In this document: piece after piece, positions 6,162 through 51,963 of the stretch
Layout of the letters: the number at the start of each line of letters is the position of its first letter
Numbering within the stretch: the stretch's first letter is position 1
Source: an uncultured Gammaproteobacteria bacterium
GTDB taxonomy: Bacteria > Patescibacteriota > Microgenomatia > Levybacterales > UBA12049
DNA length: 64,000 nucleotides
Assembly: GCA_964564035.1 (NCBI GenBank)
Contig: CAZLZN010000004.1
Location: 10,632-74,631 of the forward strand
Reading direction: 5' to 3'
Notes under the pieces: generated by a model
Databases searched by the model: none
The model's input: only the letters and a program-made list of their open reading frames with translations
Told to the model about the DNA's origin: nothing
Position numbers and translations under genes: made by a program

Positions 6162-6918
6162 GGACCGGTGTATAAGTGGGCAAAAATCTAGGCGCCTTAT
6201 CATAGCCGAAAATAATCACTATGTCCGCGTCATTAGGTCTGATTTCTCCCGCCGGATAATTAGAAATTTCTATTCCCATAGAATCCGCCAATTCCTGAGC
6301 ATCCGCTCGAGCATTTTGGTTAACCGGGATCACAACCGATGACGAATATGTGTTTACCGATGCGTTTTCGCGCCTCAGGATCAGAGCGTCAGGAAGAGCC
6401 AATTTGACGTCCTGCTCATATGTATTGGTCAAGCCGGACACTGCGGTTCCGTTTCTCAAAACAATTTTTGTTTGCTCCGCTTCGCTTGCTTTTGCCTGAT
6501 CTATACCGTTATTTATGTTCATGCTTAGCGAGGTCACTTCAATCAATTTACCCGTAGACGGGCGATAAAGGTAAGCCTTGCGGGATTTTTCGTAAATCAG
6601 CACCTTATCGCCGTTTTCGCTTCTGATAAAAAACTCCTGATCCTTGAGCTTGGCTTTATCGGACACAGTAGCCAGGACAGGCTCTTCGCCAACCGGCAAC
6701 TCGATCAGACGGGAAATTTTGGCAGTCAGCATTCTGGCTTCTTCCAGAGCCGCTTCCTGTGAGTTTTTTTTCAGATTCTGATACTGACTATAGAAATAGT
6801 ATGAGGGAATAAAGGCCAAAATTATTATAGCGACTGCGGATATCGAAATTATAATAGTTATTTTCTTATTTAGTTTTGGTTTGAATTTTTGGATTTTGGA
6901 ATATAATCGCCTGAGCAT
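6145..6918 (-). CDS. membrane-anchored LytR_C domain protein
   Basis: The C-terminal part (KIVLRNGTAVSGLTNTYEQ..ADAQELADSMGI..DADIVIIFGYD) looks like a LytR_C domain. There is an N-terminal signal-anchor helix. I prefer ATG 6918 (MLRRLYSKIQKF..) to the TTG at 6984 used by the ORF track. The 3' end overlaps pyrD by 17 nt (convergent). Confidence 0.65.
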   Translation of the reverse strand: MLRRLYSKIQKFKPKLNKKITIIISISAVAIIILAFIPSYYFYSQYQNLKKNSQEAALEEARMLTAKISRLIELPVGEEPVLATVSDKAKLKDQEFFIRSENGDKVLIYEKSRKAYLYRPSTGKLIEVTSLSMNINNGIDQAKASEAEQTKIVLRNGTAVSGLTNTYEQDVKLALPDALILRRENASVNTYSSSVVIPVNQNARADAQELADSMGIEISNYPAGEIRPNDADIVIIFGYDKAPRFLPTYTPVPTQPL

Positions 6919-7021: not shown

Positions 7022-10000
7022 ATGATTCACTTGCTCAAATTCTTATATCTCCTGCCATTTAATCTTCTTATTTTCACCCTCATCACTTCCTCAATAATAC
7101 CTTCCGTTCACGCGGCGGACGGCACAGGCACGTGGACACAGATTTCCGATATGCCATCATCTCATTCCAATGCAAGCGGTATAATTACTTTAAATAGCGG
7201 AAAGGTACTTATAACTACGGGTACAGGCCAGAACGGAATTACAAGCAAAAGCGAGCTGTTTGATCCATTGACACGCACATGGTCCTCAACCGGAGACGTT
7301 AATGAGGGGCGTAATTTATACGGCAATGCAATTGTAAAGCTACCTGATGGGAATATAATGATTGCAGGCGGTGAAGGACCGGGTGTTACAGATATAGGAT
7401 CGGTTGAGATCTATGATCCACAAACAGAAAGCTGGTCATTTACTGATCCTCTAGCAACACCCAGGCGTTACGCAGCTATAGTTCTTGAAAACGGCAAAGT
7501 GCTTGTTACGGCGGGCGCCAATGGAATTCCAAATAATGACCGTTTTCTCTCCTCAACCGAAATTTATGATCCGGCAACAGACACATGGTCATCCTCGGGC
7601 GCTCTGAATGTAGCCCGTGAAGGAGTAATCGATATTGTTTTACTCAAAAACGGAAAAGTACTTCTCGCAGGAGGATATACCCTAAATGATAAAATGACAA
7701 ACATCGCTGAAATATATGATCCGGCTACCGGAATTTGGTCAACATCACAAATACCTGTTGAGGGCGGCTGGAGCGGAGGCTCTATGACTGTTCTTGAAAA
7801 CGGCAAAGTACTACTGGCCGGAGGAGTAATTGGCTACTGGACAAATAATACTACAGCTACAAATAAATCGTGGCTTTACGATCCATCCAACAACACTTGG
7901 TCCATGACAGGCTCTATGAGTACAAACCGTAACGGACATAGCAGTGCGCTTCTCGCCGACGGTAAAGTATTGATGATAGGTGGAGGATCAAATCAAACAA
8001 ATATATATGATCCGGCACGCGGAACATGGGCTCTTTCAAAGACTACCAAATATCCGGCGTACAATGGCATCGCTAGCCTGCAAAATGGCGATGTGCTTGC
8101 AATAGGAGGAGATCCTGAGGGTAAATCCGCCGAGCTATTCACAAACGAGCCTGTTCTTCCGACACCGACAAGCACCCCAACCCCCACAGCAACTCCTACT
8201 CCTACCCCCAAACTCCCGGTCATCCTGATACCGGGCATCATGGGAAGTGAATTTGAAGTGAAAGAAACAATTGCTAATTCAGGGATAAAACAGTGCCTCA
8301 ATCCGCTTGAGGATTATGAGTATAATCAAGGAGATACTGTGTGGCTTAATCAGGATATTAATATACTCAGAGATAATATTTTATGCGGTAAATATCTTGA
8401 CATATTAAAAATGGATGAGAATGGCAACGAGATATATCCACAAATAGGATTAAAAAATAATTTGGTAACAGCAAAAATTTTTGAACAGCATATTGGCTAC
8501 TACGATACCATTCCTTTCTTTTTGGAAAAAGGGTACATGCTTAACAAAGACTTCTTCATTTTTCCCTATGACTGGCGCAAAGACCTGACAGATAATATAT
8601 TTCTGCTCGATGAAAAAATAAATAACGCCACAACCAGCGCCGGAACAACCAAAGCACAAATTGTTGCCCACAGCATGGGTGGACTTATAGCGCGTGACTT
8701 TATCCGCGACCCTGAACGTGCTGAGAAAGTAGATGCCATAATTGAACTCGGTACGCCTCATGCAGGAACACCAGCCTTTCTTGCACATTTACTATATGAT
8801 AAATGCATTAAGCACTTTGGAGTTTGCATAATTAATGGAGAGAAGATTAACAGTCTTGTACAGAACTTTCCCGGTGCTCACCAGCTCATGCCTAGTAAAC
8901 TATATTATGAACTATACTTTCGTCCTCAAGATTATCCGTTTAAAGACAGCCGGGATATTGACGGAAACGGAGTAAAAGACGCATTAAATTACGATCAAGC
9001 AAATATATTGTTATCTAATTTGGGAAAGAACATGAATCTGATTAACAAAGCCGAATTGTACCACGATTCACTGGACACAACATATGGCAATACTAATGGT
9101 GTAAAAACCTATATAATTGCAGGCTCTGGGCAGCCAACCATTGGACAGATCCATGATTATTACGGTTTTACTCTCTGGAATAACAGGTTAGAGCTTCCCT
9201 TTGGAGAGCCAAAATTAGATGCAGATGCGATAAACGGAGATGATACAGTGCCGATTCTGAGCGCTACCCTTGGAAAACTTAGTAATGTCTTTTATGTGAA
9301 TCAGGGCCATAACAGCCTCCCGACAGGAACTGCTATGAGTTTGGCCTACAATCTTCTTACTGCTCAATCTACCGATATTCCGGGAGTAAGCACAATACCT
9401 TTCGCATTTAGCGGACAAATAATATCTGTACATAGCCCTGTCCTTCTTCACGCGTACGACAGCGAAGGACGCCATACCGGCCCCAGAGATGACGGAACAA
9501 TTGAGCTAGGTATCCCCGGCTCGTCCTATGACTATCTGAGGGATTCTAAATTTATCTATCTGCCGGAAGGCGAAAACTATAATATCAAAACAAAAGCAAC
9601 AGACGAGGGAAGCTTTGACCTCAAGATCAAGAAATACTCGGAAAGCGCTCTAACCAAAGAACATATCTTCCTAGCTATTCCTCAGACAGATGAAACAACG
9701 TCTTTCATGGTGCTAAATACAGATACTCCTGAACTTCAGGTGGATAAGGATAACAACGGCACAGTAGACCTTACTCTCACCTCGTCAAGCACTCTCACAG
9801 GCGATGATCTTACTGACACTCAAGCCCCTGTCACAACAGCTGCGCTAAACGGATCACAAGGCGCAAATGACTGGCACACATCAGATGTAACACTTTCATT
9901 TACAGGTGAAGACTCGGGCGCAGGAATACTAAAGACGTATTATTACAAGGACACGGATCAAGTCCTGCATGATGCAGACGCGCCAATAACTATCAATACC

Positions 10001-10564: not shown

Positions 10565-10643
10565 ACAAAAGATTATGACAATAAACATTTACAAAGAGAG
10601 GGGGTGGACTAAATTATTAAGGTAAACACTTAATAAAATCGTT

Positions 10644-40203: not shown

Positions 40204-40206
40204 TGA

Positions 40207-40325
40207 GAATTAAGAATTAAGAATTAAGAATTAAGAGTTTAGAATTCAGAAGTAAATTTAGAATGTAGAATAATTTTAAACTCTAAATTCTATCTGAATT
40301 TTGAATTATGAATTCTAAATTTGAT
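40207..40325. repeat. 119-bp array with strict 7-nt periodicity (gaattaa x4, then ~13 degenerate heptads); the halves are partly inverted
   Basis: In one phase from 40207: gaattaa x4, gagttta, gaattca, gaagtaa, atttaga, atgtaga, ataattt, taaactc, taaattc, tatctga, attttga, attatga, attctaa, atttgat. It starts 4 nt from the aminotransferase start codon. agagtttagaatt can pair with aattttaaactct. Confidence 0.8.
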
Positions 40326-40460: not shown

Positions 40461-41213
40461 ATGGACAAAATTATCAGAGACGCGCTGACTGATCTGGGGT
40501 GTTCGGATAAAGAGATAAAGTTTTTCATCACAAATTACCGTTCAGGCGCGCTTACAATCAATGAAATAGCTAAAATAGCAAAGATCGAGAGATCTACCGC
40601 CTATTTGATAGCCCAAAGCCTCATTAGCAAGGGCCTGATTATTGAGGACTTGAAACAATATAAAAAATCACTCGTGACTATTGAGCCGAAAACACTTCTT
40701 CGAATGCTGTCCGCGAAACAAAGACAAATCGGGAGACATGAACTGACGCTTAAGGAAAATCTAAGCGCGCTTGAGTCCCTTTATTTGACATCAGAATACA
40801 GACCGACGGTCAAAACTTATGACGGAAATAACGGTTTACTCGCGATTTGGAAAGATATTTTGTCAAAATCCCAGGAGGTTCTGCTTTGGACAAATCAGGA
40901 TACCGAGAGTAATTTTTTTACGAAGAATTATCATCATCTTTTTATCAAAGAAAGGTTTAAAAAGAATATACCTGTTCGCGTACTGGCTGTTAATAATTCA
41001 AAAGGACAGGAGCTTATCAAAAACGATAGTGAATCGCTTAGAAAAACAAAAATTCTCCCGGATGGCGTAGTATTCAGCGCGGAAACATATATTTACGGCG
41101 ATAAGGTCGCTATTCTGGACTATAATAAAGACATAATTGGCGTAATTATTAAAAGCGATCAGATTGCCGGATCGCAGAGGGCAATATTCGAGATGAACTG
41201 GGGAGTTTTATAA
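40461..41213 (+). CDS. TrmB-like helix-turn-helix transcriptional regulator
   Basis: The N-terminal winged-HTH (..LGCSDKEIKFFITNYRSGALTINEIAKIAKIERSTAYLIAQSLISKGLI..) resembles the TrmB family. The C-terminal domain is unassigned. Confidence 0.7.
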   Translation: MDKIIRDALTDLGCSDKEIKFFITNYRSGALTINEIAKIAKIERSTAYLIAQSLISKGLIIEDLKQYKKSLVTIEPKTLLRMLSAKQRQIGRHELTLKENLSALESLYLTSEYRPTVKTYDGNNGLLAIWKDILSKSQEVLLWTNQDTESNFFTKNYHHLFIKERFKKNIPVRVLAVNNSKGQELIKNDSESLRKTKILPDGVVFSAETYIYGDKVAILDYNKDIIGVIIKSDQIAGSQRAIFEMNWGVL

Positions 41214-42536
41214 TGACCGTCTGCGTTTTTTGTCCCAAAAATCTCCTCTTCTCGGCAATAAATCCGCATCCTTTTTTTCATTTAATAAACTTTCAATTAT
41301 ATCTTCCAAATACATAGACGCGGAGGCCTTGAATAAAATCCTCTCCCCTCCCCTGATGTTTTCTTTTATAAAATCTAATACTTCTTCGCGATTCGAAAAT
41401 TTAATCACTTGATCATTTGACCCTTTTTCATTTTTAATTTTTGAATTATTATTTTGATCTTTGATCTTTGATCTTTGATCTAATATTTGGAAGGTATATT
41501 CCCCTACTCTCTTCCCTACCAAAATAATCCGCTCCAAATCCATCTCACTCAACAACCTGCCCAGCTTCTCATGCTCTTCACGCTCCTTCTCTCCAAGCTC
41601 GAGCATGTCGCCCAGTACTACCCATTTTTTATCTCCGGGCATTTTGGAGAACATGTCCAGAACTGCTTTCATGGAAGACAGATTGGCGTTGTAGGAGCTG
41701 TCGATAAGCAGAGTGTTTTTTATGCCTTGTAAAATATTGCTTCTGCCGGGCGGCATTTTTAACCGGCTAAATTTCTTATCAAAAGGTAATTTCAAATACC
41801 CGCACACCTCGCGGCACATGACGATCGAATAGAATATCTCTTCGGGTAATAACTGACTAAATTTATATTCTTCACCTTTTATTTCAAATATCGTGCTGTT
41901 TGTGGTCAAATTATATTTGTTTAAATAAATCTCTTTTGATACCTCTATGACTTGATTCCTGCTTCGCACTACATGCTTCTTCATGAACTCCGAATCAGCG
42001 TTGATCACAGACAAACTTTGACAGCGTTCAAGAAAATGTCCGAAGTCATGCGCAATCGCTTCATCTACTGATTTAAAACCTAAATGCTTGATTTTTAAAG
42101 CCTGTTCAAAATTCTGGCTGTGCGTTCTGCCGACACTTGTCCAAAGCACGACTTCGGGTTTGAGAAATTCAGCCAGGAATTTACCTTCTCCCCATCTGTC
42201 GGTATCTGCTTCTGCTACGAATATTTTTTCATGAGGGGGGTTTTTAAATGAGTTAATAGGCGCTGTTAAGAACAATTTCAGCCATTCTACATAGCTGAAG
42301 GTTTCTCTATGCAGATCCAGGATGAAAAACGGTATTCCGTACGCGCTGTTCGCGTGATGTGAGTAAACAGCCTTGTCGCCCAGCTGGGATTCAAGCATAT
42401 GCAGGAGAGTTGTTTTTCCGCTAGAACCGGTTACGACAACTACTCTAGGACTCCATCTGCGAAGCTTTATCCCCGCCCAGAATCGGAAATATTTTGCGAT
42501 AAATAAATAGAGTGATTTTTTGAGTTTGTTTATCAT
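41208..42536 (-). CDS. murF: Mur ligase family protein (MurF-like)
   Basis: P-loop VVVVTGSSGKTT, Mur ligase central and C-terminal patterns (..IDSSYNAN.., ..VLGDMLELG..). Contains the low-complexity insert DQRSKIKDQNNNSKIKNEKGS. Confidence 0.8.
   Translation of the reverse strand: MINKLKKSLYLFIAKYFRFWAGIKLRRWSPRVVVVTGSSGKTTLLHMLESQLGDKAVYSHHANSAYGIPFFILDLHRETFSYVEWLKLFLTAPINSFKNPPHEKIFVAEADTDRWGEGKFLAEFLKPEVVLWTSVGRTHSQNFEQALKIKHLGFKSVDEAIAHDFGHFLERCQSLSVINADSEFMKKHVVRSRNQVIEVSKEIYLNKYNLTTNSTIFEIKGEEYKFSQLLPEEIFYSIVMCREVCGYLKLPFDKKFSRLKMPPGRSNILQGIKNTLLIDSSYNANLSSMKAVLDMFSKMPGDKKWVVLGDMLELGEKEREEHEKLGRLLSEMDLERIILVGKRVGEYTFQILDQRSKIKDQNNNSKIKNEKGSNDQVIKFSNREEVLDFIKENIRGGERILFKASASMYLEDIIESLLNEKKDADLLPRRGDFWDKKRRRSL
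41424..41481. repeat. 7-nt-periodic array inside the murF-like CDS (ends with ttgatct x4)
   Basis: In phase: tttttca tttttaa tttttga attatta ttttgat ctttgat ctttgat ctttgat. On the coding strand this encodes the Lys/Asn/Gln-rich insert. Confidence 0.8.
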
Positions 42537-42669
42537 TTTTGTTTTAGGAAAAAGCCCGGACAGAGTACATTCTCAGCGATAAGGTATTATACTATATAAT
42601 TTGTTATTAAGCTTAATTTTTTGGTAATTCACGAAAATATTAAGTTTATGTAATAAAATCACTATAGGC

Positions 42670-42699
42670 TTGACATTTGGTAATGTGTCGTGCTAAAAT
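42670..42699 (+). promoter_or_regulatory. sigma70-type promoter (TTGACA-N18-TAAAAT), 8 nt upstream of ATG 42708
   Basis: ttgaca at 42670-42675 and taaaat at 42694-42699. There is no SD, and only gacaacat separates the -10 from the ATG, which suggests a leaderless or near-leaderless mRNA. Confidence 0.6.
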
Positions 42700-42707
42700 G
42701 ACAACAT

Positions 42708-43118
42708 ATGCCAAGCTTGAGAGAAATGGGGATACGACCTGATGTAAACGGCCTTAGATTGGTAAGACCAGACAAAAGTGCAAAAGTTGTTAAGGTGACT
42801 GAGTCTCCCATAGTGGGCGATGAGCGTAAATTATTTAATTTCAGAAAACCTGCAAAAAGAGAAAAGAAATCAGAATCTCCAGCGACAGTGAAACTAGAAG
42901 ATCCAACAGAAACCAAAGTAAGAAGCGTAGATGTTTATAGCAGATACGCAAGTAGAAAAGTGACCAAAGCTTTGGCCGAGCAACACCCTACGTTGAGAAA
43001 AGTGCATCTTATGAACGCCGCGGCAGCATTAGAACAGGCAAAAGTTGTAACACCAGGCGGCATAGATGAAATGCACAAGCTTCATACTATATATGAGGCG
43101 ATTAACACGCTGAAATAA
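42708..43118 (+). CDS. hypothetical basic protein (orphan operon gene 1)
   Basis: 136 aa with a Lys/Arg-rich, disordered-looking N-terminal half and a helical C-terminal half. No recognised motif. Its stop is 1 nt from the next ATG. Confidence 0.6.
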   Translation: MPSLREMGIRPDVNGLRLVRPDKSAKVVKVTESPIVGDERKLFNFRKPAKREKKSESPATVKLEDPTETKVRSVDVYSRYASRKVTKALAEQHPTLRKVHLMNAAAALEQAKVVTPGGIDEMHKLHTIYEAINTLK

Positions 43119-43119
43119 T

Positions 43120-43428
43120 ATGGCAGAGAATTTATTTAAGCAAATAACAAGGTATATAGGTTCAAATATTGTGCTTGAGTGCAATATCACCCGTGAACAA
43201 GAAGAAAAAACAAAAAAAGCCGCTCGCAGAAAAATATTCTACGACGACGAACATCGTTCCAGAAGCGGATTTAATGGAGACTCGCCGAGTACTTATGCTG
43301 CTGCAGAGGCGAATATCAAAGCTCTGAGAGCGTCTTTTGCTGATAGCGGGATAAAAGAATTACGAGAGATACCGGCAAAAGTAGATCGAGAGAGAATTTT
43401 AAATATTAGAAAACTGTTCGAGCATTGA
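43120..43428 (+). CDS. hypothetical protein (orphan operon gene 2)
   Basis: 102 aa, charged and helical. Translationally coupled spacing to gene 1 (TAA-t-ATG). Confidence 0.55.
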   Translation: MAENLFKQITRYIGSNIVLECNITREQEEKTKKAARRKIFYDDEHRSRSGFNGDSPSTYAAAEANIKALRASFADSGIKELREIPAKVDRERILNIRKLFEH

Positions 43429-43573
43429 CCCACTAATACCTTACTACCGAACCAATTCATTTATAATCTAAGCATCATATATATTTATCGTATTTATGAT
43501 AAAAAGATTACTTTATTTATGCGGCAGGGTTCATTGACAGCGCTAAGTTATTATAATAAGCTGAATAGAGATT

Positions 43574-45589
43574 ATGGAACAGGATAAAGGGCAAAAGGGA
43601 GAAATTTCGACGCCGCAAATCGATTTTAGTCTGGAGATGGTTCGAAACTCGGCGCTTGATCATAGATTGAGGGCCAAAGCAGCTGACGCGGTGATTCTGG
43701 GTTCCAGAATTGACAGCATAATTAGCTTATCTGAGATAAGCAACATTGAAGATATAACCGGAAAAGATGGCAGGTTCTATAGAGACCGAGCTCTTGAAAA
43801 GATATCCGATAAACTAAAAGATAAATCATTAAGTAAACCGGAGATAATAGAACTTCGAGAAATTGAGGCAAAAACAGCACTTCAGCAGGCATTGGAGCCT
43901 GAAGATAACTTTGACTGGCGCTCCAAGTTGAGCGACTTTGCCAACAATCAAGATCCTCAAATAGAAATAAACGAAAAAACCAGGTGTGAGCTGCGAAAAC
44001 TTGCGCATGGACCAACTGACACTGTTTGGACTGGCAGAATAAGATCTATAACACATAATCTGTTTACGGGAAAAGAAAATAATTTGTTTATTAAAGTTAT
44101 GCCGATCGTTACCAGGAATCCGGACGGATCACGTACGCCTTATAGCTATTACGCACAAGCTGTTGAGGCAACAATTGATGCGGAGATGCGGAGATCACCT
44201 AACCCTGATTATAAGCCGGTTTTGGAGAGCATGAAAGAACGTTTTTCCGAAGCATCGTATGAAAATCATACTGCATATCTTAAATCACTTGAACATATTA
44301 CCCCGGAAATGCGCGAGGCGCTGAGTGAAGATACTGAATACAGGACAGCTCTGGCAGAAAAATTTATGCAAAACAAAGAATTTCACAAGGCAGAGAGCCT
44401 GATGGATAAGCTTGCGAATAATGACAGAATAAGAGCTCTCAGGACGAGGAATTATCTTTTTCTGGCAGAGCAGGCAGATAAATCCGAAGACGCTTCCAAA
44501 TATATCAGAGAAGCGATGACAAGCTCCGTAGCACTTGAAGTCATACCTGTAATCGGGGGCGAAGGAATTGGTAAATACACCAGGGAAATTGCAAATAAAT
44601 ATCCTAATCAACCAGAACTTATTAGGCCACTACAGATTATGGAAGCCAGAAGCTTTTTGGGGCGCGCAAATCCCGATACGGAAGCGGCGGGCAGAAAAAT
44701 AAAAGAAGCACTTGGCGCACCGAACGATTTTGATATTTCTAATACCGATGTCTTTGTTGAAAAAACAGAACAAATAGTCGATAAAAAAGTCCGGCAGTCA
44801 TTGATTCTTGCTTCGATAGAATACTTATCAGCCAAATCCAAAACAGAAAGCGCGGAAAAGAGCGCCGGCAAATATACCGCACAAATTGAATCATTGGCGA
44901 CCCAATTACAGACGAGCTTCATGGAGTCTTATGCCGAAAAATCGACTGAGCGCAAACACGATAATCTGAGACTGGATGTATCGGATACGTTGAGCAGAGT
45001 TTGGGGTCTACAGGTTGAATCAGGCTGTGATATAACGCGGCTCAAGGAAAATATAATTCACGGTGCCGACAAATTGGGTCTAGATATCCCTGAAATACCT
45101 GCTATAAAGAGGATCAATGAATTAGAAGACAAAGTCCAGCAGGAAAGGCACAAATCAGAACTAACAGGCAGACTTTCGAGAATTACCGATAATCTCGATT
45201 CTGCAAGCATTGAAGATTTGAATTTTACATTGGGACATGCGGATAAAATTGAAAAAGAAAAATTGAAAGATATTACTGATAAAGCACGAAATAAAGTTGA
45301 AATATCCGATGGAGAGCTAAAAAATAACGGGATTGAAGTTATTAAATTACTTGATGCTTATATGACCCAGTTCCAAAATGCCCGAGCGGATGAGAAAGAG
45401 AGCCGCAGAATACCGGGTCTGATAAACAGTATATTGCCGTTTGCGCAGGCAGTCTACGCGGCAACATATCAAGACGAAGCCAAATCTCAAAAAATTGCGA
45501 AAGCTATTGTTGAATTAAATAATGCCAAGGATGTTTTGCCTACAGTTAAGAAGGGCGGGTCATTTTTCAGAAGATTTTTGAAGCGGTAA
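43574..45589 (+). CDS. hypothetical 671-aa all-helical cytoplasmic protein (orphan operon gene 3)
   Basis: Long ORF with coding-like composition. No TM, signal or catalytic motif recognised. Its stop is 2 nt from the convergent dnaB stop. Confidence 0.7.
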   Translation: MEQDKGQKGEISTPQIDFSLEMVRNSALDHRLRAKAADAVILGSRIDSIISLSEISNIEDITGKDGRFYRDRALEKISDKLKDKSLSKPEIIELREIEAKTALQQALEPEDNFDWRSKLSDFANNQDPQIEINEKTRCELRKLAHGPTDTVWTGRIRSITHNLFTGKENNLFIKVMPIVTRNPDGSRTPYSYYAQAVEATIDAEMRRSPNPDYKPVLESMKERFSEASYENHTAYLKSLEHITPEMREALSEDTEYRTALAEKFMQNKEFHKAESLMDKLANNDRIRALRTRNYLFLAEQADKSEDASKYIREAMTSSVALEVIPVIGGEGIGKYTREIANKYPNQPELIRPLQIMEARSFLGRANPDTEAAGRKIKEALGAPNDFDISNTDVFVEKTEQIVDKKVRQSLILASIEYLSAKSKTESAEKSAGKYTAQIESLATQLQTSFMESYAEKSTERKHDNLRLDVSDTLSRVWGLQVESGCDITRLKENIIHGADKLGLDIPEIPAIKRINELEDKVQQERHKSELTGRLSRITDNLDSASIEDLNFTLGHADKIEKEKLKDITDKARNKVEISDGELKNNGIEVIKLLDAYMTQFQNARADEKESRRIPGLINSILPFAQAVYAATYQDEAKSQKIAKAIVELNNAKDVLPTVKKGGSFFRRFLKR

Positions 45590-47583: not shown

Positions 47584-47682
47584 GTATTACATCCTAACAT
47601 ATACTCCCCATTATTGACAATAGGATGCATTTGACGTATCATCAACTCGAGATTAATTTTTCTGCACCGCCGGTTATTTCCT

Positions 47683-51512: not shown

Positions 51513-51791
51513 GAGCGTTTTTTTCCTCGGCAGCTCATGATGAAAACGCACTCTTTCTCTTCGAACGCTATACTTCGCGTAAAGCATTCCTGCATAATGG
51601 CCTGTGATATCGTGCTGATTAATTTCATCACGGCCTTTCAACTCTATGAAAGAACCTTTGTGGCTGTAAACTATAGTATCCGGAGATGTAACATTGAGGA
51701 GGTGATCTGACCAAGCCCTTTTTTTGCCGACCGGTAATTCCCTGGACCAAACGGGTAGTTTTCCTAAATAAAAAGTTTCGTGGATGCTCAT
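51465..51791 (-). CDS. hypothetical protein (weak call)
   Basis: 108-aa ORF divergent from hisS. Its last 48 nt overlap the pepP 3' end. No motif recognised. Confidence 0.3.
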   Translation of the reverse strand: MSIHETFYLGKLPVWSRELPVGKKRAWSDHLLNVTSPDTIVYSHKGSFIELKGRDEINQHDITGHYAGMLYAKYSVRRERVRFHHELPRKKTLLHKAHEFLVGPRQAY

Positions 51792-51963
51792 TGTGCCGCC
51801 TCCTCTTAGATATTTGGCAACAGCCTGATCATATCACAACTATGCAGTTTCGCAAGTAGTACTGTATTTCGCAAATTTTTACTATGCCATTTGCTAGAAA
51901 TAAAGTATTTTCAACGTATATCAGATTACAAGCCGAAAAACATTTACGAAATACAGCAATAGC

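Follow-up and report, generated by a model that had tools for sequence, protein, structure and literature searches.

When three genes without recognizable relatives lie in a row beside the gene for the replicative helicase, do they act together as one unusual system, or do they only share an address? The question is raised by a block of three genes, here called A, B and C, next to dnaB in a 64,000-nt stretch of bacterial DNA, positions 10,632–74,631 of contig CAZLZN010000004.1 (hereafter 'the window', by which we mean this whole stretch; all coordinates are window positions unless another locus is named). An earlier note on this DNA read the block as a single three-gene operon and as a candidate for an undescribed system. 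Our analysis favors a plainer account: the block appears to comprise two adjacent, independently promoted, lineage-restricted accessory units, set in an insertion of ~3 kb between dnaB and a murF-like gene of Levybacteria, which belong to the Microgenomates of the candidate phyla radiation (CPR). We put the probability of this account, taken as a whole, at roughly 0.55.

The first unit, promoter P1 with genes A and B, would be expressed as a leaderless bicistronic mRNA that encodes two small, basic, hydrophilic proteins under weak constraint. The second, promoter P2 with gene C, would give a leaderless or near-leaderless mRNA for an alpha-solenoid that is acidic and cytoplasmic and that purifying selection constrains to a normal degree. 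The likeliest role of C would be that of a protein–protein interaction scaffold, and an amphipathic, basic helix at its C-terminus may hold it at the membrane. The features concerned are these:

42670–42699, + strand: promoter P1 of A (TTGACA, N18, TG-extended TAAAAT), in a leaderless-type arrangement
42708–43118, + strand: gene A, encoding a hydrophilic protein of 136 aa, isoelectric point (pI) 9.95
43120–43428, + strand: gene B, encoding 102 aa, pI 9.4, with its start 1 nt past the stop of A
43515–43529, unstranded: 15-nt site ATTTATGCGGCAGGG in the B–C spacer, flanking a putative insertion that resembles an insertion sequence (IS) or a miniature inverted-repeat transposable element (MITE) and is present in part of the population
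43534–43562, + strand: promoter P2 of C (TTGACA, N17, TAAGCT, 11 nt to the ATG)
43574–45589, + strand: gene C, encoding 671 aa, pI 5.9, predicted to be a cytoplasmic, all-helical, TPR/HEAT-like repeat protein

In outline the locus is as the earlier note drew it. The three + strand open reading frames (ORFs) of 136, 102 and 671 aa are confirmed, and with them the near-consensus promoter, TTGACA-N18-TAAAAT, 8 nt ahead of the first ATG and lacking a Shine–Dalgarno (SD) motif; the TAA-t-ATG junction of A and B; the 145-nt spacer between B and C; and the end of C, 2 nt from the dnaB stop codon and with no terminator. The single operon did not survive, for C has a promoter of its own that is conserved in L001, the genome of a syntenic sister species. 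P2 consists of TTGACA (43534–43539), 17 nt, and TAAGCT (43557), followed by 11 nt and the ATG of C; it falls in the last ~45 nt of the B–C spacer, which L001 has kept, whereas upstream of them its spacer is of another length and cannot be aligned. P1 is conserved too. It comprises TTGACA (42670–42675), 18 nt, and TAAAAT (42694–42699) preceded by TG (TGcTAAAAT), then 8 nt to the ATG; it matches the consensus at 11 of 12 positions, and its hexamers, the TG and the 8-nt GACAACAT are all retained in L001.

A more distant homolog of C, in locus L088, stands alone behind its own promoter (TTGACA-N18-TGcTACGAT, then 7 nt and the ATG), without A and B. The translational coupling of A and B that the earlier note proposed is not conserved: the gap between the two genes, 1 nt in the window, is 31 nt in L001. 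Conservation of P2, the solitary C of L088, the unconserved coupling of A and B, and an IS-like insertion between B and P2 all point to A–B and C being two transcription units rather than one operon.

That insertion came to light as a structural variant in independent assemblies of the same organism that are otherwise 100% identical. Contigs that carry A and B run into foreign sequence just past the 15-mer ATTTATGCGGCAGGG, and contigs that carry C open with a different foreign sequence just ahead of the same 15-mer. Both junctions occur within one sample (the variant loci are L005 and L006, at 5′ ends, and L092, L093, L094 and L096, at 3′ ends). The two foreign ends pair with one another as an inverted repeat (17/21), and the variant contigs break off after 28–29 nt of foreign DNA, as they would at a repeat present in many copies. 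We read the variant as a probable multi-copy IS/MITE-like insertion, situated 4 nt upstream of the −35 element of C in part of the population; the window itself carries the empty insertion site. Viral contigs contain no match to the IS end. A related end (25/28) does occur in a relative, at L019 9812–9839. The same locus has a 27-nt inverted repeat (6230–6256 and 9735–9761, 93% complementary, arms 3.5 kb apart), one arm of which lies at the start of a small basic ORF (82 aa, 9526–9774, − strand) adjoining the IS-like end, a hint that this genome has some small repeated gene or element in two inverted copies.

Patterns of substitution show all three genes to be real. Rates were estimated between the window and L001, for which synonymous sites are near saturation (synonymous rate, dS, 0.7–1.6). 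Amino acid identities, nonsynonymous rates (dN) and ratios are as follows:

DnaB: identity 97.7%, dN 0.017, dN/dS 0.02
Neighboring genes: identity 75–93%, dN/dS 0.03–0.25
C: identity 75%, dN 0.15, dN/dS 0.12
murF-like gene: identity 78%, dN 0.13, dN/dS 0.15
PepM24: identity 75%, dN 0.17, dN/dS 0.13
A: identity 33%, dN 0.70, dN/dS not computable
B: identity 36%, dN 0.58, dN/dS not computable

C (dS 1.2) is thus normally constrained, to about the same degree as the murF-like gene and PepM24. For A and B, the proportion of synonymous differences (pS) is past saturation and dN is 4–10 times that of any neighbor. The proportion of nonsynonymous differences (pN, 0.40–0.45) is nevertheless below pS (~0.79–0.80), and in L001 the ORFs, their start positions and blocks of residues are kept. 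The A ortholog there has 112 aa and is 37% identical over 57 aa (pairwise E 4e-9), the N-terminal half of the protein being variable and rich in indels and the C-terminal ~57 aa conserved; the B ortholog has 107 aa and is 33% identical over 104 aa (pairwise E 6e-20). These observations together mark A and B as real genes under weak constraint.

Might A or B, or both, instead be non-coding, either an RNA gene or chance ORFs in a leader transcribed ahead of C? The very low conservation, the lack of homologs and the low-complexity, basic composition could be taken that way, but the similar-length ORFs with conserved starts persist in L001 even though the nucleotides are essentially unalignable, the protein similarities are significant at the E values just given, pN is less than pS, and Rfam gives no match even at E <1. 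We regard this explanation as very improbable. The idea that A and B form a hypervariable cassette was dropped as well: their divergence fits relaxed constraint at saturated dS, and in a strain that differs by 10 single-nucleotide polymorphisms (SNPs) in the murF-like gene both are identical. The only B variant found differs at 2 residues. The data require neither positive selection nor cassette exchange, and A and B are probably best thought of as young, weakly constrained, small basic proteins that are expressed from a strong promoter.

How widely do these genes occur? Searching with dnaB produced 80 related loci, nearly all labelled Levybacteria, Microgenomates or Patescibacteria, the best of them 76% identical. 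The surmise that the organism is a CPR bacterium is borne out by these relatives, and by this measure the window comes from a lineage of Levybacteria that has no close species representative. None of the 80 loci carries A, B or C when examined by tblastn and with hidden Markov models (HMMs) built from the known members. C has two homologs anywhere: P0002, 75% identical, from L001, and P0005, a 793-aa protein from L088 that is ~30% identical over the whole length. A word-indexed search of 5.8 billion clusters returned C itself and P0002, and, for A and B, only the queries themselves; an exhaustive HMMER search of 1.84 billion representative proteins returned only P0001 and P0005. A and B are known, then, from two genomes (the window and L001) and C from three (these and L088).

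Scans of the three proteins and of P0005 against Pfam, NCBIfam, PHROGs and PADLOC gave nothing at or near threshold, and for A, B and C PADLOC gave nothing even at E up to 1. Phage and plasmid records (tblastn) hold no relatives of the block, viral contigs searched with A, B and C gave no match, and metagenome contigs at JGI came back empty both for the C alignment and for the conserved P1 DNA. PDB sequence profiles found nothing for B or C and a sole match for A, eL20 (E 0.009), which we judge to be compositional, due to a basic segment. The three are unrelated to each other in profile–profile comparison (probability <1%) and have no paralogs within the window. They are therefore orphans, as the earlier note held, with no family assigned by profile searches and housekeeping families excluded. 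The suggestion that they form one distinctive system fared less well: the trio recurs only in the one sister species, L001, and in L088 C is found by itself among other neighbors. The roles that the earlier note offered, as a toxin–antitoxin or defense module, a cytoskeletal factor or an effector set, would be no more than guesses.

The setting of the block can be described with three further features:

41208–42536, − strand: murF-like Mur ligase gene, a context gene (Pfam Mur_ligase_C 2.8e-15, Mur_ligase_M 7.6e-12)
42537–42707, unstranded: divergent intergenic region between the murF-like gene and A, 84% identical to L001
45592–46917, − strand: dnaB, the replicative helicase gene (Pfam DnaB_C 6.1e-101, DnaB 1.6e-29), convergent with C

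The murF-like gene also matches the NCBIfam murF subfamily (2.3e-49), under that model's cut-off. In the closest relatives, L008, L012, L027, L026, L045, L011, L019 and L014, a murF-like gene follows dnaB on the same strand after 46–690 nt, so the A–B–C block represents an insertion of ~3 kb, in the opposite orientation. Other relatives have other inserts at this junction, of 1.6 kb in L010 and 2.7 kb in L037. In L088 (9102–16379) it is occupied by four orphan genes: g238, the C homolog, g322 and a 973-aa HEAT-repeat protein (HEAT973). Profile–profile comparison of g238, g322 and HEAT973 with A, B and C gave probabilities <1%, and none is related to A or B. The dnaB–murF junction seems to collect lineage-specific helical proteins. 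On a neighbor-joining tree of a single gene, DnaB, the window and L001 are sister to a group that includes L088 along with C-less genomes, and by that tree C is patchy and dispensable within a clade of ~10 members.

The genes around the block are of the housekeeping kind: dnaB, the murF-like gene, TrmB, ddl, an aminotransferase and a LOG-family gene. Between the aminotransferase and TrmB genes, at 40204–40245, the intergenic DNA holds ~5 tandem copies of a 7-nt unit (GAATTAA/AGAATTA), and L001 has kept this repeat in part. The block had been described as running against the prevailing − strand direction; this is true of the 18 kb upstream, to which the predominance is confined, but not of the whole window (24 genes on the + strand versus 27 on the −), and the immediate neighbors alternate in strand. 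The stop codons of C and dnaB are 2 nt apart in the window; in L001 (12022–12025) the two genes overlap by 4 nt. Between the two stops no terminator-like site was seen on the + strand; as no recognizable terminator lies near the convergence on either strand, antisense overlap of the two transcripts should be expected.

Is the block, then, the cargo or remnant of a mobile element or prophage, at a variable spot downstream of dnaB? It interrupts conserved synteny, relatives carry different inserts at the same junction (L010, L037, L088), and an IS-like element is active in the B–C spacer. We nevertheless hold this to be quite improbable. Neither an integrase or transposase gene nor a tRNA is found in the block, and the repeats at its flanks amount to short chance matches (the 32-nt D1 repeat pair lies inside two coding regions). 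Its GC content, 0.35–0.43, is like that of the flanks, indicating native composition. Its dS equals that of its neighbors, which places its arrival earlier than the divergence of the two species. It has no relatives in phages, plasmids or viral contigs. None of our tests connects the block with mobile elements, a link that the earlier note had thought worth checking, or with defense or toxin–antitoxin systems.

Two small neighboring genes whose stop and start codons abut, downstream of a strong promoter, bring type II toxin–antitoxin pairs to mind. A and B differ from such pairs in that no toxin or antitoxin domain is found in them by Pfam, NCBIfam or PADLOC, in that both are basic, and in that their coupling is not conserved; the pair, moreover, is confined to two genomes rather than being widely and patchily spread. 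Likeness to the defense systems of PADLOC is lacking too, for there is no HMM match, and the block lies outside any defense island and has no mobile-element genes adjacent.

A new type of system is another matter. A, B and C might constitute a single module for conflict or host interaction, the fast-evolving, small basic proteins working with, or being presented by, the acidic solenoid. The order A–B–C is conserved in two species; A and B evolve 4–10 times faster than any neighbor behind a strong promoter that is conserved; C is acidic where A and B are basic; and the block is patchily distributed and dispensable. We consider such a module unlikely, all the same. That C occurs alone in L088, that nature tolerates an IS-like insertion between B and C, and that the neighbors are housekeeping genes, with no defense island and no match in PADLOC or PHROGs, all speak against a system in which the three parts depend on one another. 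Relaxed constraint is enough to account for the divergence of A and B (dN 0.6–0.7, dS ~1), positive selection not being needed, and the strain with 10 SNPs in its murF-like gene has A and B identical to those of the window.

What kind of protein is C? It is acidic, hydrophilic and without transmembrane segments (maximum 19-residue hydropathy 1.23). An AlphaFold2 model, built from a two-sequence alignment, has a mean confidence score (pLDDT) of 64 and a predicted TM-score (pTM) of 0.48, and DSSP assigns it helices only, bar one hairpin. Model and hydropathy thus agree with the earlier description of C as all-helical and free of membrane spans. Confidence is highest for residues 250–655 (pLDDT 75–90) and falls below 50 in residues 1–69, 106–194 and 226–252. 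Foldseek searches of PDB and BFVD returned only TPR/HEAT/HAT solenoids, the best at E 1.1e-3 and none at or below 1e-3, with TM-scores of 0.1–0.2. The model would resemble these solenoids in its predicted all-helical architecture, with many short, antiparallel helix pairs (residues ~250–480), and its top matches are spliceosomal HAT-repeat proteins, TTC7, the TPR subunits of the APC/C, Ctr9, Naa15 and importin-beta, with probabilities of up to 0.97; P0005, in addition, matches TPR_19 once, below threshold (E 0.028; 15 bits, where the cut-off is 25). C differs from the solenoids in that it matches no Pfam repeat model above threshold and the TM-scores are low, in that its N-terminal 250 residues are conserved but poorly modelled, and in that the C family has three known members. 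The predicted fold makes a helical-repeat interaction scaffold the most likely role. For B, a single-sequence AlphaFold2 model gave three helices at low confidence (pLDDT 62, pTM 0.28), too poor for a fold search; like A, the protein is hydrophilic and basic, and the earlier description of both as small basic proteins agrees with their pI values of 9.95 and 9.4.

The best-conserved motifs of the three C family members, PEDxFxWR, ITH and TxYxYY, fall in the poorly modelled N-terminal part; others (DKLxN...LRT, ARxFLG and DxKxRQS) are found further downstream. At the opposite end lies the basic, amphipathic tail KKGGSFFRRFLKR, whose hydrophobic moment (0.78–0.81; 0.75–0.81 when L001 is included) exceeds that of any other part of the protein. 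We take this tail to resemble a membrane-targeting sequence of the MinD type. The likeness to the membrane-targeting helices of MinD and FtsA would lie in this basic, amphipathic character and top hydrophobic moment; C differs from those proteins in having no ATPase or actin-like domain, and the tail is absent from the L088 homolog.

Such a tail raises the prospect that C is a lineage-specific scaffold of the cell envelope or of division, membrane-anchored and working with the peptidoglycan-precursor genes nearby (murF-like and ddl, and FemAB in L088). In all three genomes C does adjoin a murF-like gene. Most relatives, however, have this mur/ddl cluster but no C; the gene runs on the opposite strand and has its own promoter; the tail with the top hydrophobic moment is missing in L088; and position is weak evidence in a genome so compact. 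We think this role doubtful, about as much so as the conflict module. The idea that C is a helicase loader (DciA, DnaC or DnaI) was considered as well and rejected: no loader domain of Pfam or NCBIfam is present, and C is absent from 80 related dnaB loci.

Several points weigh against the account that we prefer, of two accessory units with C as a scaffold. The scaffold role rests on a model of medium quality and on generic fold matches (TM ~0.15). The amphipathic tail is not shared by L088. The motif-rich N-terminal 250 residues, being poorly modelled, could hide an enzymatic or binding domain. And the presence of A–B beside C in two species, together with their opposite net charges, could reflect a functional link. 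Taken further, this would make A–B and C a so far unseen conflict or host-interaction module of episymbiotic CPR bacteria, in which A and B would be highly expressed, fast-diverging, small basic clients or partners of the solenoid and the N-terminal region of C a new functional domain; we think this improbable, and somewhat more so than a conflict module or an envelope scaffold. The readings as toxin–antitoxin, known defense system, mobile cargo, helicase loader or non-coding DNA each fail at least one direct test.

Do the promoters themselves set the locus apart? The earlier note counted the leaderless promoter, the missing SD and the missing terminator as distinguishing marks, but all three are genome-wide here. 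The window has 9 promoter matches of 11/12 or better, where 1.97 ± 1.44 would be expected, from which it follows that P1 is not a chance match and yet is not unique. No SD motif was seen ahead of A, B or C, and SD-like motifs precede only 1 of 51 gene starts in the window, versus 9% of random positions. A −10 box (at least 5/6) ends 4–13 nt before the start codon of 13 of the 51 genes, versus 8.7% of random positions, and a full promoter (at least 9/12) ends there in 13 of the 51, versus 2.6%. The −10 elements of P1 and P2 end 8 nt and 11 nt, respectively, from the ATG, with no SD, which is what is looked for in a leaderless gene; housekeeping neighbors have the same leaderless, SD-less layout. 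To judge from its sequence, this Levybacteria genome seems as a rule to express its genes without a leader or with a very short one, and on these counts the peculiarities of promoter, SD and terminator are the genome's normal expression style and no mark of a special system. In the literature we found no statement on SD use in Levybacteria.

Nor does conservation single out the region between the murF-like gene and A. At 84% identity to L001 (42537–42707) it is well kept in spite of saturated synonymous sites, but other promoter-proximal intergenic regions are equally conserved, and so the region is nothing special; Rfam has no match to it. The divergent intergenic region at 47584–47682, between genes of 170 and 145 aa, is 99% identical to L001, far above the synonymous sites of the surrounding coding DNA, and holds TTGACA-N17-TATCAT at 47614; the genes of 170, 145 and 257 aa that flank it are conserved neighbors of dnaB in ~70/87 related loci. 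Upstream of the HisRS gene (51964), ~180 nt of non-coding DNA (~51780–51963) are ~95% identical to L001 despite saturated synonymous sites. Rfam has no match to them, even at E <1, and they may constitute an undescribed leader or regulatory RNA for hisS.

Genes of this kind are no rarity in the wider group: lineage-specific unknown genes of Patescibacteria number 283,874, and species-level clusters 45,788 (AGNOSTOS, Vanni et al. 2022, PMC9132574). A, B and C resemble the genes of that catalogue in being restricted to a species or genus, in lacking homologs and domains, and in residing among the housekeeping genes of a CPR genome; they differ in that selection, synteny and promoter structure are here resolved for an individual locus. 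The best-supported view is that they are ordinary lineage-specific accessory genes, of undescribed families, with no sign of an unusual mechanism. Were the three proteins to work together, they would represent a new module of small proteins and a solenoid in CPR bacteria, though nothing that we found requires this. As a calibration case, the locus indicates that near-consensus sigma-70 promoters abutting start codons, together with missing SD motifs, are no grounds for singling out a locus as unusual in such genomes. It shows, too, that orphan genes sharing a neighborhood can differ greatly in constraint, from a dN/dS of ~0.12 to near-neutral, and it illustrates how a conserved junction, that of dnaB and murF, gathers lineage-specific helical proteins.

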